Positions 47,450-63,194 are shown, counted from the first letter of the stretch. The stretch is 64,000 bases of DNA from Armatimonadota bacterium (GCA_012512265.1 JAAZEM010000131.1:1837-65836), one strand, 5' to 3'. Translations and numbers: made by a program. The notes: generated from the letters alone by a model not told the origin.

Positions 47450-47714
47450 GCGTTCTTCTCGCGCATCGCCCGCCAGCCGCCCCGCGGTTGCCCGGAGGAT
47501 GGATGGAAGCCCCCAACCCGTCCCTCCCCGCGCTGTCAAAGCTTCTCTGACCGTGACGCCCGCGCGTATCACTGGTTGCGGAAGGAGTAGCGCCACTCGT
47601 CATAGAAGTTGAAATCACGAAGAGGTGTTCTCATGCCTTCATGGAGCTACCGCACGTGAAGACCCCTTGGGCCGCGCCAATCACTCAGCGCGATCGAGTT
47701 GGGGGAACGCCGGA

Positions 47715-48644
47715 GTGACACGACCTCTTCATCCTGGGGAGGCACCTATCGTTGCGGGGCTCACCCTGGCGTTGGGAGAGCCGGCACGGGCAGCGATGTA
47801 TCAGCCCCTGCTACGCCGCGCGGTCGCGGCGGAGTGGGAGATGGCCTTTGCCCGGCTGGCCGCGGGCGGCGCGGGGGCGGTCGCCGGCATCGTGTCTCGC
47901 GAAGGCGAGGGCGATCTCCAGGAGGGGATGTTCGCTCTCCCGCGCCTCGTACACCGGACCGGCATCGAGCCCTATCGTGCCCTCTTCCTCGCGGCGCTCC
48001 ACGACCGGATCCTCGATCGCCAGGAGCACGGCGTGTGCCTCTTCATCGACTGGGATACCGGTGGGCTTGGCGTCTACGCTGTTGACTTCGCCGATGGGAA
48101 CGCGCGCATCCTCACCTCCTCATTTCAACCGGCGATCTGCACGGTGGCGCTGGGAGAGGCGGTCGCCAGGCACGTGCTCCTGCCGGCAGCCATGCCAGGC
48201 GGGGCCAGCCTCTGGAACGATCTGGAGAGCGAGGAGAGAGCGCGTCTCCGCGGGGCAGGGGAGGGCCTGCTGCGGCGGTGCTGGCTTGGAAGTCGGGAGC
48301 GGTTCGTGTGCGCGATCCCGCCGGTGCCGAGGGGCCGGGCTCTCGCCCGCGGCGCGGTACTCTCGATCACGCGCGAGGCGCTCTTCGCGCAGTGTCGGCT
48401 GGCCCTTGCGACGGCGGTTGACGCGCTGAGTGGTGCGCTGGAGACGGTGATGAGCCGCTGCGACACGCCGCTCCGGGTGGTGGTGTCGGGCGAGGCGGCC
48501 CGCTGGCACGAGTTTCAGAGCGCCGTGCGCCGGACATGCGGCGATCTTCCGGTGCATCTGGCGCCAAGGCCGGAGTCTTTCGCGGCGCGAGGCGCCGCCC
48601 TGGCGGTGGCAGAGGAGCACCTTGGAACGAAGGGAACCGTGTGA
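47715..48644 (+). CDS. degenerate Hsp70/actin-fold protein (predicted pseudo-ATPase), first gene of the Hsp70/vWA/tubulin-like cluster
   Basis: Hsp70 NBD motifs are recognisable but eroded. Phosphate-1 GIDLGT is replaced by AGLTLALG, phosphate-2 DLGGGTFD by DWDTGGLGV, and adenosine motif GGSTRIP by VSGEAARWH. The C-terminus ESFAARGAALAV corresponds to 'deaVA.GAA'. The start is uncertain (GTG 47715 or GTG 47625). The stop overlaps the next ATG (ATGA). Confidence 0.6.
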   Translation: MTRPLHPGEAPIVAGLTLALGEPARAAMYQPLLRRAVAAEWEMAFARLAAGGAGAVAGIVSREGEGDLQEGMFALPRLVHRTGIEPYRALFLAALHDRILDRQEHGVCLFIDWDTGGLGVYAVDFADGNARILTSSFQPAICTVALGEAVARHVLLPAAMPGGASLWNDLESEERARLRGAGEGLLRRCWLGSRERFVCAIPPVPRGRALARGAVLSITREALFAQCRLALATAVDALSGALETVMSRCDTPLRVVVSGEAARWHEFQSAVRRTCGDLPVHLAPRPESFAARGAALAVAEEHLGTKGTV

Positions 48645-50761
48645 TGGCAAACGCCATTTCCGTGGGGATCGATCTGGGTACCAGCACGTGCGAGGTCGCC
48701 TATTGGGACTCCGTAGCCCGGCGGATACGCAACGTCTCCTTCGGCGGTGAAGGCGGGCCCATTGTGCCCTCCGCGGTGTGGTTTGATCGCGCGCGAGGGC
48801 GCACGGTGGTTGGTGACCAGGCCTACGCGATGCGCGTGCCCAAACACCGGGAGGTCGTGCTCAACATCAAGCGCCAGATGGGCACCGACTACCGGTTCGC
48901 GCTGGGTGGGCGGGAGTACACGCCTGCCGAGATCTCGGGCGAGATCCTCAGGTACCTGAAGGCGGAGGCGGAGCGCTTTACCGATGGCGAGGTGAAGCAG
49001 GCGGTGATCACCGTGCCGGCCAAGTTTGACACGCTGGCCCGCGAGCACACCGAGGAAGCGGCGCGGATCGCCGGCCTGGAGACGCTGATGCTCCTGCCGG
49101 AGCCCGTGGCCGCGCTTATCGGCTATGAGAGCGTGGCCCAGGATCCCGAGCGCGAGTATGTCGCCATGGTCTACGACTTCGGCGGCGGCACCTTCGACTG
49201 CAGTGTTGTCCATGCCAGGGGCAGGCAGTATCGCGTTCTCTCTAAGGCGGGGGTACACCGCCTGGGCGGCGCCCAGATTGACGAGCGGATCGCCGATCAG
49301 TTGATCCGCCCCAAGGTGTTGCATGCGGGCTTCGACCTGGCCAGCGAGGAGGAGTGGGCGCTCAAGATCCGCGCGAAGATCCTCGAGGTTGCGGAGGCCG
49401 CCAAGAAAAGCCTCTCCGATGAAAGCCGGCGCTCCGTGGTCGCCGTGCTCCCCCATCTCGTGGCGCCGGGGCGGCCTCCTCAGACCGTGCGCGTGGAGAT
49501 CACCCAGGAGGATCTGCAGAAGACCATCGCTGACCTGTTGCGTGTGGCCAACGAGCAGATGGCGCTCGCCCTGGAGAACGCGGGAATCTCTCGCGCCGAG
49601 CTCGATATGGTCGTCCTTGTCGGTGGCTCGACGCGCCTGCCCGCGATTCGAGAGGCTGTTCGCCAGTTCATGGGCGAGAAGGCGTTCGACGGCAGGGATG
49701 GCGGGGTTCGCAAGGTGCTCGCCGATGCCAATCCGGATCTCGTCGTCTCGCGCGGCGCCGCGCGCGTGGCCACCTCCTATGACCTGCGCGACGAGCGAAT
49801 TGAGCTGGTCGATATCCTCCTCGACACTGTCTACCTGCGCGTGCCGGGTTCCCTCACTCAATTCAGGCCGCTCTTCGCTCGGGGCACCGAGATCGAGCAG
49901 GCGAAGCGCACGCTTCGGCTGCAGTGGCCCCGAGGCGACACCGTCGCCGTCGATCTCTATGAGGGCGAGAAGGACGGCGCCCCGGGAGCGAAGTACGTGG
50001 GCACCCTCAAGTTGGGTCCGGCCTCTGTGCCCAAAGGGACTCCCGTTGAGCTCACCATCCAGTACCGCACCGACCGCGCGCTCCCAGAGGTGACGGCGCG
50101 GGTGAGGAAGACGGGCACCCCCATCCGGGCCACGGTGGAGTACGAGCAGCATAGCGTCCAGGCATCGGGATCGGCACGGCTGCAGGTGACCCCGGAGCTG
50201 GACCTCGTCTTCTGCATCGACACCACGGGGAGCATGGTGCATGGCGACCACCTCGAGAAGCTGCGCCACTGCTGCACCCGCTTCGTCAACGCCCTTGCCG
50301 AGAGTGATCTGGATCTCCGCCTGGCGGCGATCAGCTTTGGCGACCGCGCCGGCGGCGAGCGCGAGACGGTCTACTCCTTCACCCCGGACCCGCGCCTCTT
50401 CATCACGCGCGTTGGAAGCCTGAACGAGAACGACGGGGGAGACGAGCGGGAATCGGCGCTCGATGCACTGGCCGTGGCGCTCCGGCTTCCCTTCCGCGAG
50501 GGAGACACCCGGCATCACATCGTGCTCGTTACCGACGCGCCCCCGCACCGGCCGGAGAAGGGCTCGCTAGAGCAACTGGTCTCGCAACTGGCTGCCCACA
50601 ACATTCGAGTCGATGTGGTCGGGCCGTTCTGCCAGGAGTATGACACCGTGGTCGCTGGCACGGGAGGGCGGCTCTACAACATCGACGACGAGCTGGATCA
50701 GCTGTTTGCCGATCTCGAGGAGAGTATCGGGCACGCGAGCAGCGGCACGGAAGGGGCATGA
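48644..50761 (+). CDS. Hsp70-family ATPase (NBD plus beta-sandwich substrate-binding-like domain) fused to a C-terminal von Willebrand factor A domain
   Basis: Canonical motifs GIDLGTSTCEVA, ITVPAKFD, LLPEPVAALIGY, VYDFGGGTFDCSVV, and VVLVGGSTRLPAIREAV. An SBD-beta-like segment reads VDLYEGEK...GTPVELTIQYRTD. The vWA domain carries the MIDAS motif LVFCIDTTGSM (DTTGS at 50219-50233). Confidence 0.85.
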   Translation: MANAISVGIDLGTSTCEVAYWDSVARRIRNVSFGGEGGPIVPSAVWFDRARGRTVVGDQAYAMRVPKHREVVLNIKRQMGTDYRFALGGREYTPAEISGEILRYLKAEAERFTDGEVKQAVITVPAKFDTLAREHTEEAARIAGLETLMLLPEPVAALIGYESVAQDPEREYVAMVYDFGGGTFDCSVVHARGRQYRVLSKAGVHRLGGAQIDERIADQLIRPKVLHAGFDLASEEEWALKIRAKILEVAEAAKKSLSDESRRSVVAVLPHLVAPGRPPQTVRVEITQEDLQKTIADLLRVANEQMALALENAGISRAELDMVVLVGGSTRLPAIREAVRQFMGEKAFDGRDGGVRKVLADANPDLVVSRGAARVATSYDLRDERIELVDILLDTVYLRVPGSLTQFRPLFARGTEIEQAKRTLRLQWPRGDTVAVDLYEGEKDGAPGAKYVGTLKLGPASVPKGTPVELTIQYRTDRALPEVTARVRKTGTPIRATVEYEQHSVQASGSARLQVTPELDLVFCIDTTGSMVHGDHLEKLRHCCTRFVNALAESDLDLRLAAISFGDRAGGERETVYSFTPDPRLFITRVGSLNENDGGDERESALDALAVALRLPFREGDTRHHIVLVTDAPPHRPEKGSLEQLVSQLAAHNIRVDVVGPFCQEYDTVVAGTGGRLYNIDDELDQLFADLEESIGHASSGTEGA

Positions 50762-50766
50762 CACCA

Positions 50767-52298
50767 TGGCACGGATTGCTGAGAGGCCGCCAATCGTTAT
50801 CGGCGTGGACCTGGGGAATGCCTCCTGCCGGATGGCGCCCTGGCGCAACGTGAACAGCCACTCGCCAACGCCCGATACGATGGGCTTTCGCTCCTGCCCG
50901 GCGGTGGTGGCGCGCGACCATGAGGAGGGCGGGTGGCTTGCCGGCGCCAGCGCCCTGGAGATCGCCTATCGGGATGGGGTGGAGCTGTTTGACCACCTGA
51001 AGGACGGCATCCTCCAGGAGCGCGGGGCGAACGCGCGGAAGACGGCTGTCCAGCGCCTGCTCTCCAAGCTCAAGTTTGATCTCCAGGCGGAGTGCGCCGC
51101 GCGCGTCATTGACGCCGTGCTTTCCGTTCCCTACTCGTACACGCTGAAGCAGCGCCGGGCGCTCCGCAACGCCTGCTCGCTGGCGGGTCTCCCCGTGGCC
51201 GGGCTGATCAACGAGCCGGAGGCGGCTGTTCTGGGGTATCGGATTGACGAGCAGATTGAGGAAGGCAGCGAGCGGATTCTCGTCTTCGATGCCGGGGCCA
51301 CGCGGTGCACCGCGAGCGTGGTCCGGCTGAGCAAGCAGGGGGCCTACATCGATATCGAGCTCCTGAGCGAGGCGCACGCAGTTACAGAGGAGGGAGAGCC
51401 GGTCGGCGGCGACAGGATCGACGCCCGGCTGCTCGAGATGTTCGAGAGGGGCCGGCTGCAGATCCCGCCACTGCCTTCGCCAGAGGCCCAGGCGGCCGGG
51501 GATCAGATGGACCCGGTGGAGTACGAGCGCTGGCTGCGGCAACAGCTCCGGCGTGTCCTGCGCGAGGCCCGGCACCAGTTGAGCGGCGAGACCTCCTTCG
51601 AGTTTTCGGTGCCCTGGGCCGAGGAGAGCCTCGGCCGGCTGACACGCGACCATCTGGAGCGATGGGCCAGCTTCGATACCGAGATCACCGCGGCGATCCA
51701 GATGGCGGTGCAGGGCGCGCGCGACCGCGATGCCCCGAACGGCCTCCGGAATGACCAGATAGACCGCGTCCTGATCACCGGTGGGCTCAACCGCTCGCCT
51801 TTGATCCGCCGGCTCGTGGATCACTTCCCCCATGTGGAGCCGTGCGAGGATGGGTTCGAGGAGTACGCGGTCGCCTATGGCGCGGCGCGGTGCGCGGCGA
51901 TCCTCACGGGCCGGTGCGAGGGAGTGGTCTTCCGCCCGCGCGAGACGCCCGCGTTTGGGATCCGCACCGGGATCGACACCTTCGACAAGGTGATCCCGGA
52001 AAACGCGCCGCCAGGGTTCAAGGCGAAGAAGGTCTACACCCTGCCCAACCGCTACGCCGACCGCATGGTGCTGGAGGTGTGCCAGGGCTTCTCCCGACGG
52101 TTCCAAGACGAGCTGTCGCTGGGCGCGAAGGAGCTCCCCCTCCAGTTCCCCGAGGGCGCCGGCAAGGGCACCTACCTCGAGCGTGAGATCCACGTCGAGA
52201 TGGATCTCGCCGATACCAGGCTCCTGGTCACGGTGACCGACCGCACCAAGGGGATTTCCCAGCCGGTGCCCGATAGGCTGGAGCTCGAGGTGAGGTGA
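50767..52298 (+). CDS. divergent Hsp70-like protein (NBD plus SBD-beta-like) with partly degenerate nucleotide-binding motifs
   Basis: VIGVDLGNASCRMA (phosphate 1, T to N), LSVPYSYT, LINEPEAAVLGY, VFDAGATRCTASVV (degenerate phosphate 2), VLITGGLNRSPLI. It starts 5 nt after the previous stop and follows GGAAGGGG. Confidence 0.8.
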
Positions 52299-52310: not shown

Positions 52311-52889
52311 ATGGAAGGCCGTCCGAGAACGGTGGAAGAGGTCGACGAGAGGCAGAGGACGCTGCGGGAGGAGTTTCGCCGGCTCAACGATGCGCTTGAA
52401 AGCAAGTTTGGAGAAGCGATCACGAAGCGTCAGATCCTGGATGCCGCGCAGGCGTGCGAGGTGCTCCGACAGTTAGCTCGGGAACTGAAGGTGCTGAGCG
52501 ATGAGAGTGACAGGATGCGGGAACCCGAGGCGAGGCAGAGGGCGCTCGAGAGGTTCGTCAGCGGCCGCATGGATGACAAGGTGGGTGCCATCCAGAGCGA
52601 GGAGATTGGCAAGCTCAAGGATGATCTCAACGCGATACAAGCGGAACTGGCCAATCTGAGGGAGCAGCTAGAGACTGGGGTCAACCATGCGCTTCAGAAG
52701 ATAGCGGATGCGCAAGGGAAGGTAGATGTGACCGATGGTCTCCTGAAGGAGGCCATCAGGCAGCGGGACGATCTTTCCCAGAAAATCGAGCGCCTCGAGA
52801 GGATTGCCAGGGATCTGGATGCTTGCGAAAGGATGGCGGAGGTCGCTGGGGCTGAGCCAGCCGGCGGCCAGTGGGGGGATCACGGGTAA
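52311..52889 (+). CDS. coiled-coil protein (hypothetical)
   Basis: AAGGAGGAAG RBS. The 192-aa sequence is rich in E/R/L/K/Q with a heptad-like character. I see no globular motif. Confidence 0.6.
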   Translation: MEGRPRTVEEVDERQRTLREEFRRLNDALESKFGEAITKRQILDAAQACEVLRQLARELKVLSDESDRMREPEARQRALERFVSGRMDDKVGAIQSEEIGKLKDDLNAIQAELANLREQLETGVNHALQKIADAQGKVDVTDGLLKEAIRQRDDLSQKIERLERIARDLDACERMAEVAGAEPAGGQWGDHG

Positions 52890-52953
52890 CCGCCCCGGAT
52901 GTGTGGCGCGGTTTGCTATCCCGGAACGCCAGGGAGAGAGGCTGGGCTCGAAG

Positions 52954-54495
52954 ATGAAGAACGACTGGGGCCGGGCGGACTGGAGTCGGGTATTCTATGT
53001 ATCGCTGGTGTTCGCGATCGTGCTTGTCCCTGCCGCGTTGATCCATGTTCTCTACCGCCACTGGGGAGTCCCTGCCGCGTTGATCCCGACGGTCTGGGAA
53101 GCCCCGTGGTTCGAGCACTTGGTGGTAGTCTTTGCGTTTATGTCAGTGGTCGTTGCCTGGATCAGCTCTCGGAAGGCCAGGGAGTCGCCGTTGAAACCTG
53201 AGCCCGCTCTGGAGTCGAGCCCGCGGGTAGAGCCCTGGCGGGCGGAGAGCCTGCAGGAAGAGTGGAATGGCTGGGAGCGAAAGCTCGACACCTACCGCTG
53301 GATCCTGGACGGGGATCTGCCCGCGCTGGATCCGGGAGAATTGAGCCAGGCGCAGGCTGCATTCAACAGCTTGCGGGAGGGGATCGAGCGCTTGCAGGAC
53401 CCGGGCGATTCCGAGCGGCCTCGTGCCAACGTCCCGGACCGCACCTGGGTCCGGAATAGCCTCGAGACGGGCATCAGTGCGATACTCGACCGGGAAGAGG
53501 AGAGGCAGCGCCTTCGCGCTCTCGTTGAGAAGACGGTGACGGAGTTCCGGGAGCAGGTGGAAACCCTGCGGGAAGAGGTGCGCGTGCTTCAGCGAGAGGC
53601 GGGCGTGCCGGCGGAAGAGGCAGAAGGCCCGGGCGAGTCTGACAGCGGGGCGGGCCACCTTGCCAGCTTGCAGGAGAAGATAGGAGAGCTCCAGCGGCGT
53701 GTTGAGGCGCTGGCGGGTGAGTCCGCCGATGAGACTTCGGGCGCAGGAGCAGACGTGCTCCAGACCATCGACGGCCGGCTGTCGCGGATTACCGATGCCC
53801 TGGAAGCGAGGGCGTACGAGATTTCAATCCGCGATTTTCACCGCCGGCACGAGGAGTTCACTAACCTTCGCCGCCGGCTTGCCGGGGAGGTGCTGCCGCT
53901 CCTGGAAACCGCTCCTGGGGACGAGGCGGCGCGGCATTGCCACCGCGCGCTCTCGGAGCTGCTGGAGCGCCTGGATGGCCGTCTGGCGGCTGCGAAAGAG
54001 GCGGTCCGCCACCGGGGCGAAACCCCGGGTGGAGGCGGAGAGCTGGAGCGGCGCATCGAGCGGCTGGAGACGCGCGCGCACCGGCTGAAGGATGGTGGTG
54101 ACGCCTGTCTGATGGAGCTGGCCGAGCCGCTGGTGCAGGAGCACCTGCGTCCCTTAGTCGAGATGATCATCCGCGATTTTCTCCGGCCGCTGCTGGAGGA
54201 GGCGACACCGGTGGAAGGAGAGACCGCCAGGAGTGCCCGCGCCACGTTGCTGGGCGAAGTGGTAACGCTCGCGCGTAGAGTCCTGTTGGAGAGCATCCAG
54301 TTGGAGGTGATCGACCCAAAGGCAGGCAGCAAGCTGGAGGAGGAGGCGCACGACGAGATAGAGGTACTCGCCCCGGAGGGAGACGCGAGCCCGAACACGG
54401 TGGCGGAGGTGGTCGCGCCGGGCTACCGCTGGGCGGGAGAGGTGATCCAAAGGGCGCGCGTGTGCTCCTATCGGGAGAGAATGGACAGGGCCTGA
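52954..54495 (+). CDS. membrane-anchored long coiled-coil protein with a GrpE-like C-terminal beta-domain
   Basis: Two N-terminal TM helices (VFYVSLVFAIVLVPAALIHVLY and LVVVFAFMSVVVAWISS), then about 350 aa of coiled coil. The C-terminus LEVIDPKAGSKLEEEAHDEIEV...NTVAEVVAPGYRWAGEVIQRARVCSY parallels the GrpE C-terminus (cf. E. coli VEVI...PLDPNVHQAIAMV...[23 protein letters not shown]). The start is uncertain (an ATG at 52804 is also in frame). Confidence 0.65.
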   Translation: MKNDWGRADWSRVFYVSLVFAIVLVPAALIHVLYRHWGVPAALIPTVWEAPWFEHLVVVFAFMSVVVAWISSRKARESPLKPEPALESSPRVEPWRAESLQEEWNGWERKLDTYRWILDGDLPALDPGELSQAQAAFNSLREGIERLQDPGDSERPRANVPDRTWVRNSLETGISAILDREEERQRLRALVEKTVTEFREQVETLREEVRVLQREAGVPAEEAEGPGESDSGAGHLASLQEKIGELQRRVEALAGESADETSGAGADVLQTIDGRLSRITDALEARAYEISIRDFHRRHEEFTNLRRRLAGEVLPLLETAPGDEAARHCHRALSELLERLDGRLAAAKEAVRHRGETPGGGGELERRIERLETRAHRLKDGGDACLMELAEPLVQEHLRPLVEMIIRDFLRPLLEEATPVEGETARSARATLLGEVVTLARRVLLESIQLEVIDPKAGSKLEEEAHDEIEVLAPEGDASPNTVAEVVAPGYRWAGEVIQRARVCSYRERMDRA

Positions 54496-55623
54496 ATGGC
54501 GGGCAACCGGAGCGCGCTTCTCTCGGAATCAGAGCTCCGCGAGCTGCGCGCGCTGCTCTATGCGACCCGGTCGAAGAGCATCGACACCTTGCAGCGGCAG
54601 GTGAGCCAGATCGGGATCCGCCTGGCGGATCTCCTCGTCAAGGTGGCTGCCGGGCTCGAGGCCGGCCTTCAGGAGACGCGCGGGCACCTGAAGGTGGCGG
54701 TCGAGACGATGATGGAGCAGGCGGAGGAGCTGGAGCAGATCAAGGCGTGGATCGAGGCGGCCTGCCTGACACCGGCCTCCCTCGCCAGCTCCCCCCGAGG
54801 TGGAAAAGACGCTGCCGAGGTCGCCCGCGTGGCGGAGAAGCTCTCCGAGACGGAGACGCGCCTGGCCGCCCTCGAAAGCGAGGTGGCGGATGTGAGCCAC
54901 CAGCTGCGGACCGCGGGCGAGCGTGTCGAGACGCCCGACCGGCCTGCGGGGGACGAGGCGCTGTTGGAGCGCCTGGAGGAGCACATCTCTCTTCTCGCCC
55001 TGGCGGGGGCTCGCCGGGTGGCGCGCGACCGCCAGGCGCGCATCCGGGCGCTCGAGCGTGTGGCCGAAGCGGTCGAGCAGCGGTTCATCCCGCGCGCCGT
55101 GGCCTTCCGCCGGCAGCTGAGCGGCGATGTGACGAGCTATGACGGCTGCCGGGCTCTGGAAGAGCGGGCGCGCGAGGCACGCCGCCTGGGAGAGGTGGCG
55201 GCGACGGAAGCCATGCGGTTGAGCGCCGCGCCCGACTCGGGGTCGGAGCGATGGGAGAGCGTTCGCGAGCTCCTGGCGCTGGGCGGAGTGCCCGATGGCG
55301 AGGACGACCTCGATTTTGAGATCCGGCGCGTGCTTAGCGAGTGGTTCCTCCCGCTCATCGATCTCACCGTCTCCTATCGGGAGACGGGGGCTCCAGAGGG
55401 AGAGGCTGCCTTCCAGGCGCTCCTTGGCGATCTGATGGAGGCGGGCTGGCGGGCGGACCTCGAAGCCATCGTGCCTGCACAGGGGGCGGCGTTCGATCCA
55501 GCGCTCCATGAGGCGGTGGGTTCAACCCCCGCTCGAGACGCGCGCGTGGCGCAGGTTGAGGCGCCTGGTTACTGCTGCGGCGGCGGAATCATGCGCCTGG
55601 CCAGAGTGCGTGTGCGCGAGTGA
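54496..55623 (+). CDS. coiled-coil protein with a GrpE-like C-terminal beta-domain (putative nucleotide-exchange factor)
   Basis: The ATG abuts the preceding TGA. A long helical region ends in LEAIVPAQGAAFDPALHEAVGSTPARDARVAQVEAPGYCCGGGIMRLARVRV, matching the GrpE pattern 'G..FDP..HeAv......V..v...GY...g.i.R.A.V.V'. Confidence 0.7.
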   Translation: MAGNRSALLSESELRELRALLYATRSKSIDTLQRQVSQIGIRLADLLVKVAAGLEAGLQETRGHLKVAVETMMEQAEELEQIKAWIEAACLTPASLASSPRGGKDAAEVARVAEKLSETETRLAALESEVADVSHQLRTAGERVETPDRPAGDEALLERLEEHISLLALAGARRVARDRQARIRALERVAEAVEQRFIPRAVAFRRQLSGDVTSYDGCRALEERAREARRLGEVAATEAMRLSAAPDSGSERWESVRELLALGGVPDGEDDLDFEIRRVLSEWFLPLIDLTVSYRETGAPEGEAAFQALLGDLMEAGWRADLEAIVPAQGAAFDPALHEAVGSTPARDARVAQVEAPGYCCGGGIMRLARVRVRE

Positions 55624-55644
55624 CAGGATGTGATGGGAGAAGTG

Positions 55645-57639
55645 ATGGCGGATAGTCGTTCGGCGAGCGTGGTGGAGGAGTTCCTGCCAGCGCCCTATCC
55701 GGCGCCTCTCTTCGTGGCGTGGGAGCAGCACCTCGATTTCGGGGAAGTTCGCCGGCCAGCGAGGAAGCGGTTGACATTCAAGGTCTCCAACATCGGCGGG
55801 GATGGTAACCTGGATGTGACGCTCCGACCGAACATCCCGGACCAGCAGTGGTTCCAGGTTCGCCCGACTCATCTCGTGATTCCGGCGGGCGAGGATCGCA
55901 TCGTTGACGTGGAGATCGATACGAGCCTGGAATCGTGCCCCCTCGGCCGGCACGACCTCGACATCCAGGTAGAGGCGCCCGGATCGATGGAGCCGGAGAT
56001 CCCGCGCATTCGGGTGTCGGTGGAGGTGCTCCGGGAGATTGTGCTGGTGTGCGACCCGGGCGAGATCGACCTGGGCGAAGTGCCCCTGGGCGAGAGCCGC
56101 ACCGTGACGGTGAGCATCCAGCGCAGTGATGAACGCGAGGTTTGCCTGAACGAGCGCCTGATCCAGCTGGTGGATGAAACCGGCAAGCCCCGGCCGGCGT
56201 GGGCCGACATTGAATTGGGAGCGCCGGGCCGGAAGCAGGAAGTCACGCTCACCTTCCACACGGCCAACCGGGCGATGCGCGAGTACCGCTGTGAACTGCG
56301 CCTGTGTGATACCGTCCCTGAGGTGAACCAGGTGGCGGTGCCCATCCACGTTTCCGTCAGCCCGCCGCCGCAGCTGGAGGTAGAGTGGGCGATCCCGCCG
56401 ATGCCGAACTTCACCGGCGACACCCAGGACGCGCAGCTCGCGGTGGGCAACTCCGGGGGCGGCGTCCTCCGCGGCCGAATCGCTGGCGACCAGTACTGGT
56501 TGCGTGTCCTGAATGGCGAGTTCAGCGTGGCGGCCGGCCAGATGCACACGGCGACGGTCCGAATCGGTGACGCCCGGTTGCGGGTTGGCACGTATCACGG
56601 TCATCTTGAAATCTTCTCGAATGACGGCGGGCGTAGCCGCGTGCTGCGCGTGCCAATCGAGCTGGAGGTGGTGGACCGGAGCCGCTGCCCCGTGGAGATC
56701 TACTTCGAGCCGGATCTGGGCGCGCTTCACCGCCGCCAGACGGCGGAGCGCGCGCTCACGATCACTAACCTGATGGCCCAGCCGTTTGAGGGGAGACTGA
56801 TCTCCGGGAGCCCCGACTGGATCCGGGTGAAGGGGGGCATGGAGGAGGTGCGCCTTGGCCCGGGCGAGTCCAGGCAACTCCTCCTGGAGGTCGACCCGCG
56901 GCGCCTCCCCGCGAAGGACGGCCCCACCAGGCACAAGGCGGCGTTGCAGCTGGTCGATTCCACGGGCAAGGAACGCTGGAAAAAGACCGCGACTTTGGAG
57001 CTCGTGCCCGCACCGTCCTCGCCGCTCGTGCGGTTGCTTCTGGCCTTCTGGGCGTTGGTGCTCCTCGCGGGCCTGGCATGGGGCGGAAAGCAGGTGTATG
57101 ACGGCCCGGTGCAAAGGATCCTCTCCGCGCGCACCCGGGCCGCGACGGTGGCCACGCCGGCGCCCGCACCGGCGGCACCGCCGGCTCAGCAGCAGGCGGC
57201 CACGGCCAGACCGGCCCCGGCTCAGCCGGCTCCTGAGTCGCAGAGCGCGCCTGAGGCCACGGAGAAACCACGCAGGGTAGCGCCGGATTCGGCCCGGGCG
57301 CGCTCTCTCTACGCGGAGGGGACCGCGCACTTCCAGCGGGGAGAGTGGCGCCTGGCTGCCGACCTCTTTGACCAGGCTGCGGCGGTGGATCCCGCGCCCG
57401 CTGGGTCGCTTTTGATGGTGGGCCGCAGCCGCTACCACCTCGGCGAGTGGGATGCCGCGGCGAAGGCGCTGGAGGAGGCGACGCGGCTCAAGCCCGATTC
57501 GGCGGCGGCCCACTTGTGGCTGGGCCGGGTCTATCTGGAGCAGGGCAACCGGGAAGCGGCCTCGCGTGAGTTTGAGGCCGCGCTGAAGGCAGATCCGATG
57601 AATAGGCAGGCACGCGATGAGCTTCAGAAGCTTCGGTAA
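55645..57639 (+). CDS. membrane protein with 4-5 N-terminal Ig-like (ASH/PapD-like) repeats, one TM helix, a Pro/Ala-rich linker and C-terminal TPR repeats
   Basis: Repeats take the form LDFGEV...LTFKVSNIGGDG.L, IDLGEVPLGESRTVTVSI, LAVGNSGGGVLRG and so on. The TM helix is LVRLLLAFWALVLLAGLAW, and the TPR region reads ARSLYAEGTAHFQRGEWRLAADLFDQAAAVDP...LGRVYLEQGNREAASREFEAALKADP. ATG 55645 follows GGGAG, with in-frame alternatives at 55630 and 55633. Confidence 0.7.
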   Translation: MADSRSASVVEEFLPAPYPAPLFVAWEQHLDFGEVRRPARKRLTFKVSNIGGDGNLDVTLRPNIPDQQWFQVRPTHLVIPAGEDRIVDVEIDTSLESCPLGRHDLDIQVEAPGSMEPEIPRIRVSVEVLREIVLVCDPGEIDLGEVPLGESRTVTVSIQRSDEREVCLNERLIQLVDETGKPRPAWADIELGAPGRKQEVTLTFHTANRAMREYRCELRLCDTVPEVNQVAVPIHVSVSPPPQLEVEWAIPPMPNFTGDTQDAQLAVGNSGGGVLRGRIAGDQYWLRVLNGEFSVAAGQMHTATVRIGDARLRVGTYHGHLEIFSNDGGRSRVLRVPIELEVVDRSRCPVEIYFEPDLGALHRRQTAERALTITNLMAQPFEGRLISGSPDWIRVKGGMEEVRLGPGESRQLLLEVDPRRLPAKDGPTRHKAALQLVDSTGKERWKKTATLELVPAPSSPLVRLLLAFWALVLLAGLAWGGKQVYDGPVQRILSARTRAATVATPAPAPAAPPAQQQAATARPAPAQPAPESQSAPEATEKPRRVAPDSARARSLYAEGTAHFQRGEWRLAADLFDQAAAVDPAPAGSLLMVGRSRYHLGEWDAAAKALEEATRLKPDSAAAHLWLGRVYLEQGNREAASREFEAALKADPMNRQARDELQKLR

Positions 57640-58882
57640 CCGTGGGTGGAGGCGGCTCCTTCTTGCCACGCTTGTTGGCGCGGCCAGCCTGGGCGCGTGC
57701 CCGAGGGTTTGGGCAGAGGCAGGCGAGGGCGTCGAGACTGTGCAGGAGCAGGCGGGGCAGATCGCGCAGAAGATCGCGCCGTACAAGGGGAAGTTTGTCG
57801 TCTTCGTCCTGGACGTCTCTGGGAGCATGACGAACCAGGGGCGGCTGCAGGCGAGCAACGAGGCGCTGGCCACGATCGTGCGCAATGGCACGCGGGTGGG
57901 CGACCGCGTCGCGATCTTCTCCTTCGACGTCAGCCCGGAGCTGCTGCTTAAGGAGACGGTCATCCAGAAGGAGAGCGACAAGAAGATCGTGATCGACCGG
58001 ATCCCGACGGTGAGCAGCAACACGGTGGGCTCGAACATCCGGTGGGCGCACCACGAGGCGCTCAAGCTGCTGGAGCCGTCGGAGTGTCCTTACCAGGTGT
58101 GCGTCCTGGTGAGCGACAACCTGCACGACCCGCCGGGTGAAACGGACCGCTTCTATCCGGATTACCTGAACTACTACATTCCCGGCACGATGGAGGCGCC
58201 CTCCACCCCGCAGAGTAACGACTACGCTCGCCTGCGCGAGAAGTTTCGCGGCGGCACCCGGCTCACCTTCGGGATTGGCGTCAACATCTCCGAGACGGGC
58301 GCCGTGCAGGAGCTGCCGCCACTGAAGAAGACTCCGGCCTGGGTGTGGCTGGTGGCCGCGGCGGCGGTTGTCGCGCTGGCTGGCGCCGGCTGGGTGGGAG
58401 CAAGCGCGTGGCGACGCGCCGCAGAGGCACGCCAGATCGCCAACAGTCCGATGAACGTTGTGATTCGCAACGTCACCCCGGATGGCACGGCCAGCCCCTT
58501 CAGCGCGGAGACGCATCTGGTGCTGCAGCCGAACGAGTCGTTCACCATCGGAGGCGCGCCTTTCGGTATCGGGCAGGTGGTTTCCCTCCCCGGCGCCATG
58601 ATGAAGGAACCGGTGGCGCGAGTCCACCGGCGCGGCCTTAGCTTCAGCCTCGAGGCGCTGCCCGGCCAGGAGACGGTGGCGGTTTACGTGGACGGCATCG
58701 AGGCCGTGCCTGGCGGAGATGCGATCCCTATCCGCTTGGGGCAGACGATCAGCGTGCGCTATCGGGTGATGGCTGGGATCGAGAAGAGCGTGGATCTTCT
58801 CTTCGCAGACCCGCGGGCGGCCGAAGAGCAGGCGGCAACCGAGGAAGTAGTCTTCGACGAGAGTCACCAGTCTCCCTATTGA
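57617..58882 (+). CDS. lipoprotein-like vWA domain protein with a TM helix and a C-terminal FHA-like domain
   Basis: Signal peptide with a possible lipobox (LGAC). vWA MIDAS FVVFVLDVSGSM (DVSGS at 57812-57826). TM helix AWVWLVAAAAVVALAGAGWVGA. The C-terminal segment FTIGGAPFG...VARVHRRGLSFSLE...VYVDG..V.....IRLGQTISV is FHA-like (tentative). It overlaps the previous gene by 23 nt. Confidence 0.75.
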   Translation: MSFRSFGNRGWRRLLLATLVGAASLGACPRVWAEAGEGVETVQEQAGQIAQKIAPYKGKFVVFVLDVSGSMTNQGRLQASNEALATIVRNGTRVGDRVAIFSFDVSPELLLKETVIQKESDKKIVIDRIPTVSSNTVGSNIRWAHHEALKLLEPSECPYQVCVLVSDNLHDPPGETDRFYPDYLNYYIPGTMEAPSTPQSNDYARLREKFRGGTRLTFGIGVNISETGAVQELPPLKKTPAWVWLVAAAAVVALAGAGWVGASAWRRAAEARQIANSPMNVVIRNVTPDGTASPFSAETHLVLQPNESFTIGGAPFGIGQVVSLPGAMMKEPVARVHRRGLSFSLEALPGQETVAVYVDGIEAVPGGDAIPIRLGQTISVRYRVMAGIEKSVDLLFADPRAAEEQAATEEVVFDESHQSPY

Positions 58883-58913: not shown

Positions 58914-61900
58914 ATGGCCGTGGAGTTGGATGCCGTAGGCGTATCCCGAAGCATCATCATTGGCTGCGGGGGCACCGGACACAGGATCATCCTGGAGACG
59001 CGCAAGCGCCTGGTGGACAAGTACGGGTCGCTGAGCAAGATCCCGATAGTGCAGTTCCTACAGCTCGATACGACACCACTCAAGGAGGAAGTGCGCTACG
59101 CGAAGGAGGTCAACCTGACCCCCAACGAGTACGTCTTCATGCAGGTGCAGAACATCGCCAAGTACCGGCGTGGCCTTGAGAATGAGCCCCACCTCTACCC
59201 GCATCTGGCGTCCTGGGTGCCGCGCTCGATCCTCACGACGAACGTCGACCAGGGCGCGGGCCAGGTGCGTGCGCGGGGGCGCTTCGCCTTCTTTGAAAAC
59301 TACCCTACGATCCGCGAGCGCCTCTACGCGGCGATGAACCGCGTCACCAGCGACCAGGCGTATCGCGAGGCCACGTCGAACGGCATCCGGGTAAGCGAAG
59401 GCGGGATCTCGGTCTACATCCTCACCTCGCTGATGGGGGGCACGGGGAGCGGCATCTTCCTGGACCTGGCCTACCTGGCCAAGAATGAGTTGAGCCAGGC
59501 CGCGGGCGCGAAGACGATCGACACGATTGGCATCCTGTTGCTGCCCCCGGTGGGCGGCGACCTGGTGGGCGTCTACTTTGCGAACGCCTATGCCTCGCTG
59601 ATGGAGCTCAACCACTTCAACAACCCCGCCACCGAGTTCGTGGCCCAATACCAGCCGGGCATGCCCGAGTTGCGCGATCCGGACGACCCCTTCACCTTCT
59701 GCTACCTGATGGACTCGCGCAACGAAGAGGGAGACGTGATCGGAGAGGACAAGCTGATCCAGATGATCGGCCACTACCTCTTCCTCGATCTCACGCACGA
59801 GTTCGCGAGCAAGAAGCGCGAGAACCGCGACAACCACAAGCAGTGGCTGCGCCGCGATGAGTTCGACTGCCCCACCAAGTACCTTAGCTTCGGCCTCTCG
59901 GCGCTCTGCTTCCCCAAGGACCAGGTGCTTCACGTCTGCGCCAATCGGCTGGCAAAGGAGCTCGTCTCGGGGTGGATGGATCCCGCGGCCGTCTTCGATG
60001 ATCGCGAGCTTCACGAGGAGGCCATCAACCGCATGGCCCAGGCCAACTGGGACTGCGATCGCGTGCGGGCCGGACTGGCGGTAGAGGGCCAGAGCCAGCA
60101 TGGGAGGAGCGCGACCGATGCCGTAGGCGAGATGGTGCGCCGCGCTGAAGCCACCGCCAAACAGGCGATGAACGAGAGCGCGATTCGCGCCCTGGAGAGG
60201 CTGATCCAGCAGGATCTCCCCCCCTGGATCTCCGCCGGCGACGAGGCCAATCCGGACGTGCGCCAGCGCAGGGGGCTGGGCATCTACCCGGAAGAGATCC
60301 GCAAGGGGCTTGAACGGCGCATCGAGCACATGAGCGCGTGGCTGGTGGAGCTGGTGACGGAGCTGGTGAACGACCCGAAGTACCGCCACGAAGGCTGCCG
60401 CCGCATGCTGGCCTGCCTGGAGCGGATTGCGACCCAATCTCGCGACCGGTTGATCCGCGACAGCACCGAGCTGAAGGCGCGGATGGACGCGCTGAATGGT
60501 CAGATCCAGAAGATGCTGAGCCAGTCGCGTGGCGAGATCCGGAAGGCGATGGAATCCGCCGCCAACGGCAGCCGGCGAAAAGCCGGCCGCGGCGCGACCA
60601 CCAATCGCGGCACGGCCGAGGCGGCGATCTCCAGCTTCTGCCGGGCAGTGGCTCAGCACGCGCAGGACAGCGTGCAGGCGTTCGTCTGCGACGCCGCCCA
60701 CCGCTTCTACACCGAGATGCTCGCCTGCCTGGCCGAGCGTAATCGCGATCTGAGGCGCTACGAGGAGCATGTGGGCGGGCTGCGCGAGCGCTTCCGTGCC
60801 GAGGAGATGCGCTTCCTGGAATCCTCCCCGGCCGTCAACGGTGAGATCCTCTACACCGGCGGAGATGAGGACGCGGATGAAGCGATCAACCGCTATTACC
60901 AGCATGTGACCGCGACAGAGAGACGCCAGATAGACGACCGCGTCCAGGCGGAGCTGGGCATCACCTCCATGGGCCTCTACGGCTACTTCCTGGCCGAGGG
61001 CGCCGGCTCTATCGACACGATTGCAGGAACTATCCTGCGGCACACGACGGCGGCGTTCAAAGACGACATTGAGGCGGTCGAAGTGCTCAATCTCTTCTTC
61101 GAAAGGTACCCGGACGACCGCGCCGCCGAGGAGCAGATGAAGCGCCTCAACCGCCTCTGCTCGCCATTCGTCCACGCGAAAGCGGGCGGGATGGCCGGCT
61201 TCACCGACGACCCGCAGATGCGCCAGCGCAACATCGGCATCCCCAACGCCGAGGAGCCGAAGACATCGGCGGAGCGGCGCTTCCGGGCGATGGTCACCAA
61301 AGCCGCGTCGGTGACCGACCCGCGCACCTGGGTGACGGTGGCCTCGCGCAGTGAGGCGCTCTTCCTCCATGAGCGTTCCGGCTTTCCCCTGCGGCTCATG
61401 GAGGACGCGTTGCGTCGGTGCGAAAGCCACTACGAACACACGCGCAAGCGCCGGAAAGAGCCAGTGCACGCCCGCGTGGATTTCCAACAGTGGGAGAGTC
61501 TCACGCCGGCGCCGCCACACCTGAAGGCGGAAGCGTGGAAGATCTTCTTCATCGCGGCGGCTTCCGGCGTGCTCACGTGCCGGCCGGTGGAGGTGCAGAC
61601 CCAGCGCGGCCAGGAGGAGCGCTTCAGCTACGAGATCAGCTATTTCGATGACCAGGGCGTGCAGCATACCGAGGTGGTGGCCGACCGCCTCCCGCCCTTC
61701 GATGCCCTCCGCTTCGATGGGAGAGACTATCCGAATGGCGTGATGCAGCTCCTCCTGAAGCTGTGTCACCCCGAGGGATTGACCGATCTGGCCCGGCGCA
61801 TCCAGCGCAAGCAGGAGGAGACTGTGGCCAAAGAAGGGGTGGCGGCGATCCGGGAGCGCCTCCTCGATCTCGTCAACAACCGGCTGTCGCCTCAAGCCGA

Positions 61901-62345
61901 GTTCACGCCGCACGCGCGCGAGGTGGTGAGTGGCTACCTCCGCTCGCTTCAGAGCGCGCCAGGAGCGGGCGCGCCCGCGACTCCCCCGGCGCCGGCACCC
62001 GCGGGCGCTACAGGCGACCGGCTCGCGAAACTGCGCGGCCTCCTCGAGAAGCGCCTGATGACCGCTTCGGACTACGCCGCGAAGCTGAAGGAGATGCGCG
62101 GCGAGGGCGTGCTCACATCGGATGAGTGCCGGGCGAGCCTGAATGAACTCCGCGACGCCGGTCTCCTGACGCCGGCGGAGTACGACGCAGCTTGCCAGGC
62201 GCTCGGCCTCGAAACGGCGGAGAGCCCGGCGGAAGAGAACTCGATTGAGGCCCGCCTGATGAAGCTGAAGAGCCTCTTCGAGAAGGGATTGATCACCCAG
62301 GAGGATTACGACGCGAAGCGAACCGCGATTCTGGCGGAAATTTGA
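58914..62345 (+). CDS. giant tubulin/FtsZ-like GTPase (Tubulin_2-type) with a long helical region and C-terminal SHOCT-like repeats
   Basis: N-terminal T1-like IIIGCGGTGHRI. Tubulin signature LTSLMGGTGSGIFLDLAYL (MGGTGSG at 59433-59453). GAGQVRARGRFAFF. Three C-terminal repeats of the SHOCT type at about 62010-62342 (LAKLRGLLEKRLMTASDYAAKL, LNELRDAGLLTPAEYDAA, LMKLKSLFEKGLITQEDYDAKRTAIL). GGGGGGAG RBS. Confidence 0.8.
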   Translation: MAVELDAVGVSRSIIIGCGGTGHRIILETRKRLVDKYGSLSKIPIVQFLQLDTTPLKEEVRYAKEVNLTPNEYVFMQVQNIAKYRRGLENEPHLYPHLASWVPRSILTTNVDQGAGQVRARGRFAFFENYPTIRERLYAAMNRVTSDQAYREATSNGIRVSEGGISVYILTSLMGGTGSGIFLDLAYLAKNELSQAAGAKTIDTIGILLLPPVGGDLVGVYFANAYASLMELNHFNNPATEFVAQYQPGMPELRDPDDPFTFCYLMDSRNEEGDVIGEDKLIQMIGHYLFLDLTHEFASKKRENRDNHKQWLRRDEFDCPTKYLSFGLSALCFPKDQVLHVCANRLAKELVSGWMDPAAVFDDRELHEEAINRMAQANWDCDRVRAGLAVEGQSQHGRSATDAVGEMVRRAEATAKQAMNESAIRALERLIQQDLPPWISAGDEANPDVRQRRGLGIYPEEIRKGLERRIEHMSAWLVELVTELVNDPKYRHEGCRRMLACLERIATQSRDRLIRDSTELKARMDALNGQIQKMLSQSRGEIRKAMESAANGSRRKAGRGATTNRGTAEAAISSFCRAVAQHAQDSVQAFVCDAAHRFYTEMLACLAERNRDLRRYEEHVGGLRERFRAEEMRFLESSPAVNGEILYTGGDEDADEAINRYYQHVTATERRQIDDRVQAELGITSMGLYGYFLAEGAGSIDTIAGTILRHTTAAFKDDIEAVEVLNLFFERYPDDRAAEEQMKRLNRLCSPFVHAKAGGMAGFTDDPQMRQRNIGIPNAEEPKTSAERRFRAMVTKAASVTDPRTWVTVASRSEALFLHERSGFPLRLMEDALRRCESHYEHTRKRRKEPVHARVDFQQWESLTPAPPHLKAEAWKIFFIAAASGVLTCRPVEVQTQRGQEERFSYEISYFDDQGVQHTEVVADRLPPFDALRFDGRDYPNGVMQLLLKLCHPEGLTDLARRIQRKQEETVAKEGVAAIRERLLDLVNNRLSPQAEFTPHAREVVSGYLRSLQSAPGAGAPATPPAPAPAGATGDRLAKLRGLLEKRLMTASDYAAKLKEMRGEGVLTSDECRASLNELRDAGLLTPAEYDAACQALGLETAESPAEENSIEARLMKLKSLFEKGLITQEDYDAKRTAILAEI

Positions 62346-62387
62346 GACCGTGCCACGTTTGGTTGCTGGTGAGTGGAGGCCGGTGCA

Positions 62388-63194
62388 GTGAGTGAGTCGG
62401 ACCGGCTGAGGCGGCTTCGCAAGCTGCGGGAGGCGCTCGATGCGCCGCTCGTGCCGCGCGGCATGTCGCGCGCCTCGGTCGCTCACTATCCGACCGTGCC
62501 GCCCCGGTACACCTATCCGGGTCCGGTGGTACCGGGCACGCGCGCGGAGCTCGCCGCGGCGCCGAAGGGCTCGCGCCCGCTCCGGTGGCTCGCGGCCGCG
62601 CTCTCGCCACTCGCCGCTCTGGAGCGGTGGCACCTGCAGGCAGCCACGGTCGCGCTGGCGATCCTAGGCGCGCTGAACGCCTACTGGTTTCAGTGGGGCC
62701 TGGAAAAGGCGGCGATCACCATCATCGCCACGGCGGCGCTGCCGGCGCTACTCAGCGGCCTCTGCGACCTCCTTTTCCGGCTTACCGTCATTCCGGGGAT
62801 TCGCCTGCACGTGGCGCTGCTTCAGTGGGCGCGCGAGCGCCATCGCGCGCTCGTGATTGTGAGAGCCTGGGCCGACACCCCTCTCCGGGGGCGCTGGAAA
62901 CGGGCGGTGCAGGTTCAGTTCGCCTCGGGGGCGATCCCGGCGCGGACGCTCGACGTGGTGACGGACCTCTACGACGACAACTCGAAGCTGGATATCGCCC
63001 TCCTGGTGGAGGCGCCGGCACTCCCTTTGGACGACCTCCTTGTCTGGGTGCGCGTGCCGGATGGCCGGCTGGCTGGGATGGAGGCGAGCATCCGCCGGTT
63101 TCGAGAGGAGCGGTGCGCGCGCTGCCTGGGCGAGGAGACAGACTGCGCCCTCTGCGGCGGCACCTACCGGGTGCCAGAGGCGCAATTCCTGTGA
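62388..63194 (+). CDS. membrane protein with a C-terminal CxxC...CxxC zinc-ribbon (hypothetical), last gene of the cluster
   Basis: GTG 62388 lies 8 nt after GGAGG (alternative GTG at 62373). TM helices ATVALAILGALNAYWF and ITIIATAALPALLSGLCDLLF. The C-terminus reads RCARCLGEETDCALCGGTYRVP. Confidence 0.55.
   Translation: MSESDRLRRLRKLREALDAPLVPRGMSRASVAHYPTVPPRYTYPGPVVPGTRAELAAAPKGSRPLRWLAAALSPLAALERWHLQAATVALAILGALNAYWFQWGLEKAAITIIATAALPALLSGLCDLLFRLTVIPGIRLHVALLQWARERHRALVIVRAWADTPLRGRWKRAVQVQFASGAIPARTLDVVTDLYDDNSKLDIALLVEAPALPLDDLLVWVRVPDGRLAGMEASIRRFREERCARCLGEETDCALCGGTYRVPEAQFL

Follow-up and report, generated by a model that had tools for sequence, protein, structure and literature searches.

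GrpE is commonly seen as one uniform protein that serves DnaK as a housekeeping cofactor. In a 64,000-nucleotide stretch of DNA from an Armatimonadota bacterium (GCA_012512265.1, JAAZEM010000131.1:1837-65836), referred to here as the window, we analyzed two adjacent genes whose products end in a GrpE-like module. They belong to a ten-gene operon whose genes are labelled A to J in operon order, and the two genes are accordingly called E and F. Here the Hsp70-binding core of GrpE is duplicated, carried on long helical stalks and, in one of the copies, predicted to be anchored in the membrane, all within an operon that also encodes atypical Hsp70s, vWA proteins and a tubulin-like GTPase.

In complexes of GrpE-type factors, contact with the Hsp70 nucleotide-binding domain (NBD) is made by two surfaces, the four-helix bundle and the beta wing (cryo-electron microscopy of GrpEL1-mortalin, PMC11685456; review, PMC4753570). 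In the human complex, the Asp-Pro of the FDP motif touches NBD lobe IB in one protomer, and in the other protomer it touches the helical lid (PMC11685456). Two classes of gene systems come close to the operon described here. The GAP1-N2 DO-GTPase systems have accessory themes that are either tubulin with vWA or HSP70/GrpE, the latter made up of HSP70 and GrpE together with another HSP70, which has no peptide-binding domain, and a protein that joins FNIII repeats to DnaJ or TPR (Kaur et al. 2020, eLife, PMC7159879). The second class is the FtsZl1-vWA core defined by Makarova and Koonin (2010, Biol Direct, PMC2875224). As for additional GrpE proteins, Myxococcus xanthus has GrpS, a second, non-essential GrpE homologue that occurs alongside PilZ-DnaK proteins (PMC10313047); a survey of the Hsp70s of M. 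xanthus leaves GrpE unmentioned. In the literature we found no description of tandem long GrpE homologues of which one carries a transmembrane (TM) hairpin.

GrpE homology of E and F

The initial annotation had placed open reading frames (ORFs) D, E and F correctly and had read the C-termini of E and F as GrpE-like; a significant match to a GrpE profile, fixed beforehand as the check on that reading, was found for both proteins. Against Pfam GrpE (PF01025, gathering cut-off 25.8 bits) E scores 28.4 bits over residues 444-503 and F scores 31.4 bits over residues 321-374, with both matches covering only profile positions 104-165 of 165, and F also matches the Thermus thermophilus GrpE 3a6m directly (E=2.3e-5). 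When the E-family and F-family profiles were compared with 20 canonical GrpEs using hhalign, F residues 268-374 aligned with a probability of 98.6% (E=5e-16) and E residues 435-505 with a probability of 96.2% (E=2.5e-9); a local hmmsearch lengthens the E match to residues 394-505, equivalent to positions 69-180 of the hidden Markov model. The hhalign alignment of F opens at residue 268, where the bundle-helix motif FLPLIDL stands opposite LLPViD of GrpE, and in the hmmsearch residues 394-450 of E fall on the same bundle-helix region of the profile (LRPLVEM/LRPLLEE) with a weaker match than in F. The fact that the aligned region opens at the LLPViD motif indicates that the homology comprises two short bundle helices as well as the beta wing. 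The earlier picture of a beta-domain grafted onto a coiled coil was therefore right about the beta wing, but drew the homologous region too narrowly. Their sequences make E and F genuine homologues of GrpE in which the Hsp70-binding module is retained.

One could object that GC-rich DNA such as this (about 65% GC) yields many long spurious ORFs, and antisense ORFs do overlap both E and F. However, the matches in Pfam, the PDB and hhalign are significant and independent of one another, orthologs are conserved in several assemblies, and all ten genes of the operon show GC3 > GC1 > GC2, the codon-position pattern of coding sequence in a GC-rich genome, which indicates that genes A to J are real. 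The idea that the similarity arose by chance, or that the ORFs are not genes, has thus already been refuted and retains a practically negligible probability.

To compare individual residues, both families were mapped to E. coli GrpE, whose sequence was verified against 1DKG. The F family keeps G-x-x-F-D150-P151-x-x-H154-E-A, G177-Y178, R186, V190 and V192 (E. coli numbering), and the E family keeps H154, GY and R-A-R-V; the beta-wing motifs are thus complete in F and partial in E. Of the FDP..HEA motif that had been read in both proteins, only the F copy stands.

Could one of the two simply be the ordinary GrpE of the organism with a long N-terminus? The C-terminal fragments of relatives in NCBI are indeed named 'nucleotide exchange factor GrpE, partial', the full-length relatives being 'hypothetical protein'. 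However, F and E are 375 and 513 residues long compared to about 170-250 for ordinary GrpE, E carries a TM hairpin, and the two form a tandem pair inside a tubulin/vWA operon with no hrcA/dnaK/dnaJ context. The best scores against NCBIfam GrpE equivalogs are 22.7 bits for E and 21.0 bits for F, far under the cut-offs of 137-266, which indicates that neither is an orthodox GrpE. In the window, hmmsearch found no other GrpE-like ORF, and no canonical dnaK or grpE is present. Neither protein has the appearance of the cell's housekeeping GrpE, and we consider it very improbable that either of them is that protein.

In architecture, E and F each join a divergent GrpE core, of bundle helices and beta wing, to a long, fast-evolving N-terminal extension of predicted helical character. 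The initial annotation had assigned hundreds of residues of these extensions to coiled coil. In a crude heptad scan, coverage was only 13% in E (182-218 and 266-296) and 20% in F (23-52 and 103-146), so this claim does not stand as worded, although its helical part fits AlphaFold2 (AF2) models of low confidence, run on three-sequence alignments and serving only as a hint of helicity, which are almost all helix before the C-terminus. For D, the coiled-coil assignment was borne out, with a heptad pattern over 63% of the protein compared to 1% in shuffles. D gives only weak coiled-coil-type matches in Pfam, NCBIfam and PADLOC, and its relatives are publicly named 'hypothetical protein' or 'chromosome segregation ATPase'.

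Membrane hairpin, relatives and sequence constraint

The two TM helices that had been noticed in E are evident as hydrophobic 19-residue segments at residues 15-33 (Kyte-Doolittle mean 2.45) and 53-71 (mean 2.01). The second segment is followed by basic residues, which suggests that the remaining 440 or so residues of E should be cytoplasmic. The TM region is structurally polymorphic among 10 near-identical E alleles, in which residues from about 355 to 513 are invariant and the GrpE module is 100% invariant. One difference between alleles, a 14-residue indel in the loop, corresponds to a perfect 19-nucleotide direct repeat at a spacing of 42 nucleotides. The alleles also contain two alternative juxtamembrane segments, which are combined mosaically.

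Relatives of E and F are few. Word-based searches found only a few close ones. When 1.84 billion representatives were searched exhaustively with a profile, about three F lineages came back, followed, from E ~1e-7 upward, only by ordinary GrpEs of 150-250 residues. Public records put the family in metagenome-assembled genomes (MAGs) of Armatimonadota. In scans of genomes and metagenomes for the tubulin domain of the operon, one MAG with 78% identity and some near-identical contigs were all that was recovered. Orthologs of F share 56% identity (P0002) and 45% identity, the latter encoded in a second Armatimonadota MAG (JAAZEB010000392, locus L005). This locus keeps the order B-C-D-E-F-G-H-I-J, with identities of 58-65% for B, C, G, H and I compared to 45% for F, 31% for E, 30% for J and 24% for D, or rather for its positional equivalent.

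Along E, identity to the L005 ortholog starts at 0.11 for the TM region and climbs to 0.49 for the beta wing. In a three-way alignment of F, three parts are conserved around a variable linker: residues 1-85, residues 150-300 and the GrpE module. Residues 51-75 (64% invariant) are the most conserved stretch apart from the GrpE module. These patterns place the concentration of sequence constraint on the GrpE module.

Two further observations concern relatives of F. Eight residues, EACEELRR, are missing from the F protein of the window; P0001, which is 92% identical to it, and more distant orthologs have them. Among the proteins returned by the search of representatives, an unrelated one of 345 residues (P0069) has a GrpE-like C-terminus (FNPMLHRAIE...YGY) behind an N-terminal extension of about 250 residues, and extended GrpE homologues may thus occur in other lineages as well.

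The operon and a possible role for E and F

The operon consists of ten same-strand genes that run from 47625 or 47796, depending on the start of A, to 63194, with intergenic gaps of -23 to 64 nucleotides. F begins without any gap after E, its ATG at 54496 coming straight after the TGA stop codon of E (54493-54495). Upstream lie an oxidoreductase-like ORF, an aminotransferase-like ORF and, on the opposite strand, ClpC; downstream of J, the near-identical contig L006 continues with the housekeeping genes GH123 and hypE/D/F. As the flanks on both sides are housekeeping genes, they mark the bounds of the operon.

Three Hsp70 paralogs had been reported upstream of D, E and F, and two of them could be verified. 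B matches Pfam HSP70 (1e-65) as well as VWA/VWA_4, its best PDB match is Geobacillus DnaK (2v7y/4ani, 1.7e-59), and in an alignment to DnaK its phosphate-1, phosphate-2 and adenosine motifs are all intact, so B is apparently an ATPase-competent Hsp70-vWA fusion. C matches Pfam HSP70 (1.8e-35) and aligns to E. coli DnaK chains (3e-23), and may be a poor or inactive ATPase. The supposed third paralog, A, has no match in Pfam, NCBIfam or the PDB, and hhalign against the NBDs of B and C gives a probability of only 3.4%, which leaves A as an Hsp70 unsupported. By eye only, DWDTGG and VVVSGEAAR in A recall the ASKHA phosphate-2 and adenosine motifs, which remains an impression. A and B overlap by 4 nucleotides, and a gene identical to A (282 residues) is called in locus L002.

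The initial annotation had proposed that E and F are dedicated exchange factors for, or tethers of, these Hsp70s. The Hsp70-binding module, the operon linkage, the conserved synteny and the pattern of constraint all agree with such a role. We lean, at somewhat better than an even chance, towards the reading that E and F, as divergent cofactors of the GrpE type, work specifically for the Hsp70s of their own operon, with a role as exchange factors included.

Several observations weigh against this reading. In the GrpE module, the motif of the long N-terminal dimerisation helix (R..AE.EN.R.R) was not detected in either protein: the profile-profile alignments start only at consensus column 89 for F and 129 for E, and the few single matches in the profile search that reach about residue 220 of F do so without a recognisable motif. 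E has LEE (or IVP) in place of FDP, its motif reading LEE..HDE, and the consensus Arg at position 183 is Glu in E and Gly, or Thr in the distant ortholog, in F. The AF2 models are of low confidence, that of F (predicted local distance difference test, pLDDT, 51) being helical before the C-terminus with four short strands at 353-374, and that of E (pLDDT 47) being all helix, C-terminus included. A Foldseek search of the PDB with the low-confidence F model returned only long-helix proteins (E>0.3). Among the presumed partners, the phosphate-2 motif of C is degenerate (DAGATRCT compared to DLGGGTFD), and no J-domain or HPD motif was found in genes A to J, so that a full Hsp70 cycle would require a partner from outside the operon. 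The tether part of the proposal is weakened further, since the TM hairpin is precisely absent in three of the 10 near-identical E alleles and the distant E ortholog in L005 has one TM helix only. Finally, the E/F family is narrow, with about three lineages in all among the 1.84 billion representatives.

Some of these points would also fit a GrpE fold used for docking or as a scaffold only. E and F would then hold the Hsp70-like proteins on their long stalks, or keep them there open and free of nucleotide, as structural parts of the tubulin/vWA assembly, without catalysis of a chaperone cycle. The loss of FDP in E and of Arg183 in both families, the degenerate ATPase motif of C and the missing J-domain are all in line with this explanation, and the long helical extensions and D resemble structural spacers. 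However, B retains all of its ATPase motifs and F most of the beta-wing signature residues, and in both proteins constraint is strongest in the GrpE module. A working interface would fit this pattern, which nevertheless does not tell catalysis from mere binding. Taken together, a purely structural role appears unlikely to us.

The choice of partner could also differ from the one we favor. The nearest matches of both GrpE modules are ordinary GrpEs, which partner DnaK, and in canonical complexes one face of the GrpE beta wing touches a helical lid (PMC11685456), which is missing from B and C. E and F might therefore be adaptors that recruit the housekeeping DnaK, rather than B or C, to a membrane complex and so supply the assembly with general chaperone activity. 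Against such recruitment stand the close linkage to B and C in the operon, the synteny that is conserved with these two genes and the strong divergence of the interface, and we judge it quite improbable.

If E and F are indeed dedicated to their own operon, the Hsp70s they serve would be B and C, encoded upstream. E and F probably pair with each other, by analogy with GrpE, an obligate dimer, and in view of the bundle helices they share and their translational coupling. They would dimerise through the bundle helices and stalks, like canonical GrpE, and the coiled-coil protein D could possibly join the pair. One beta wing would then wedge open the nucleotide cleft of the Hsp70 and lead to release of ADP; since F keeps FDP, it is the likelier cleft-opening protomer, with E as the more degenerate partner. 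E, in most alleles, would tie the pair via its long helical stalk to the cytoplasmic face of the membrane, at a membrane-associated assembly of the FtsZl1-vWA class formed by the TM proteins G, H and J and the tubulin-like GTPase I.

In its most specific form, this scheme would make E and F an obligate asymmetric GrpE heterodimer, with F as the wedge and E as a degenerate protomer and sometimes anchored stalk, that couples the Hsp70-vWA ATPase to an FtsZl1 polymer at the membrane. So complete a version is doubtful. If true, however, it would be the first case in bacteria of a membrane-tethered exchange factor of the GrpE type and would mean that a chaperone drives the switching of a tubulin-like assembly, and a heterodimeric GrpE would provide a natural test of the asymmetric action of canonical GrpE.

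Table 1. Features of the operon and of genes D, E and F; positions are counted from the first nucleotide of the window
Feature	Position	Strand	Description
Gene A	47796..48644	+	282 residues from the ATG at 47796; ORF opens at 47625; first in operon
Gene B	48641..50761	+	Hsp70 NBD and substrate-binding beta subdomain; vWA domain replacing the helical lid
Gene C	50766..52298	+	Hsp70-like: NBD and beta subdomain, no lid
Gene D	52311..52889	+	192-residue coiled-coil protein
Gene E	52954..54495	+	513 residues: TM hairpin, long helical spacer, C-terminal GrpE module
TM hairpin of E	52996..53166	+	Residues 15-33 and 53-71 (Kyte-Doolittle)
Perfect 19-nucleotide direct repeat (GTCCCTGCCGCGTTGATCC)	53026-53044 and 53068-53086	+	42 nucleotides start to start; coding region of TM1 and loop of E
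GrpE module of E	54133..54468	+	Residues 394-505: bundle helices and beta wing (Pfam, hhalign, hmmsearch)
Gene F	54496..55623	+	375 residues, soluble, helical, C-terminal GrpE module
Conserved N-terminal block of F	54496..54750	+	Residues 1-85, no family match in Pfam (three-way alignment)
GrpE module of F	55297..55617	+	Residues 268-374: bundle helices (FLPLIDL) and beta wing (GAAFDPALHEAV...GY...RLARVRV) (Pfam, 3a6m, hhalign)
Gene G	55630..57639	+	Ig-like (HYDIN/ASH-type) beta-sandwich repeats, TM helix 466-484, Pro/Ala-rich linker, TPR repeats (Pfam)
Gene H	57617..58882	+	vWA domain with DVSGS metal-ion-dependent adhesion site (MIDAS), TM helix 243-261, C-terminal domain without family assignment
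Gene I	58914..62345	+	Tubulin_2 (FtsZl1-type) GTPase, 1143 residues, two SHOCT domains
Gene J	62373..63194	+	Hydrophobic; C-terminal CxxC...CxxC zinc-ribbon-like motif; last gene of operon

Of the genes downstream of F (Table 1), H matches Pfam VWA_2 (2.1e-9) and I matches PF13809 (3.1e-73) and SHOCT (1.8e-11). The start of H is uncertain, as the long form overlaps G by 23 nucleotides and the call for a close relative is shorter by 41 residues. At its N-terminus the long form resembles a signal peptide and shows a possible lipobox (LGAC), and the choice of start decides on which side of the membrane the vWA domain lies. The C-terminal 160 or so residues of H look FHA-like, by eye only. In I, about 650 residues are without family assignment and largely helical, and the two SHOCT domains are C-terminal with an Ala/Pro-rich linker between them. 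J has no family match in the libraries searched, NCBIfam among them; its motif reads CARC...CALC and it has no GTPase domain, whereas the zinc ribbons described by Kaur et al. (2020, PMC7159879) occur on DO-GTPases.

A search of the operon genes with the defence models of PADLOC-DB 2.0 gave nothing beyond weak coiled-coil matches for D and E. These matches, to ZorA, JetC and LmuB, were rejected as products of coiled-coil composition.

Comparison with described systems

As described by Kaur et al. (PMC7159879), the DO-GTPase systems resemble this operon in both of their accessory themes: B, C, E, F and G match the membrane-proximal HSP70 and GrpE theme, and I and H match the sister theme of tubulin and TM-vWA. 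In contrast, the two themes are described there as non-overlapping and are combined here. No DO-GTPase or GAP1 was detectable with Pfam and NCBIfam in genes A to J, whose sole GTPase is the tubulin, nor in the flanks; without this core, the operon falls outside the systems as Kaur et al. define them. The main text mentions neither Armatimonadota nor a long helical or TM-bearing GrpE, and the one supplementary file available in text form contains neither 'GrpE' nor 'Armatimonad'.

Like the FtsZl1-vWA operons (PMC2875224), the present one has a Tubulin_2 gene, I, that adjoins a vWA gene, H, with an intact MIDAS, and it has membrane-associated partners. It differs in that the OmpA, protein-kinase and GTPase partners are absent, and in that it contains both Hsp70 and GrpE, neither of which is mentioned in the main text on those operons. 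Distant Tubulin_2 loci on plasmids of Nostoc punctiforme (pNPUN01), Thermus oshimai (pTHEOS01) and Deinococcus radiophilus (pRadio2) also carry vWA and no Hsp70 or GrpE, the vWA gene being directly upstream of Tubulin_2 in Nostoc and Thermus and about 10 kb off in Deinococcus. These plasmid loci adjoin CHAT/caspase, BrxL or Cas6 genes, neighbours that hint at a conflict-related role for the tubulin-vWA core. If E and F do serve the Hsp70s of the operon, they would offer an experimental handle on the uncharacterised FtsZl1-vWA systems.

The arrangement in M. xanthus is similar in that extra GrpE paralogs coexist with domain-fused Hsp70/DnaK paralogs. GrpS, as described, has the conserved GrpE domain; it differs in that neither a TM segment nor a tandem partner, both found here, is mentioned for it (PMC10313047).

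Compared to canonical GrpE (E. coli 1DKG, T. thermophilus 3A6M and human GrpEL1), the bundle helices and beta wing of E and F are homologous, F carries the signature G-x-x-FDP-x-x-HEA ... GY ... R-x-A-x-V-x-V, and the genes are linked to Hsp70 genes. Unlike canonical GrpE, E and F are two to three times longer, their helical N-terminal region is non-homologous, one paralog is membrane-anchored, and a tandem pair of divergent genes takes the place of a single gene whose product homodimerises. What the operon encodes is therefore a variant of a known cofactor that is limited to a small clade, and not a new kind of system.

In yeast, Snl1 is a membrane-anchored BAG-domain exchange factor for Hsp70. 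E would share with it the idea of a TM-anchored Hsp70 exchange factor, but Snl1 is eukaryotic and of an unrelated fold, the three-helix bundle of BAG, so the likeness is one of analogy only. If our favored reading of E and F is true, bacteria would diversify their exchange factors to direct Hsp70 machines to particular places or tasks, as eukaryotes do with BAG proteins.

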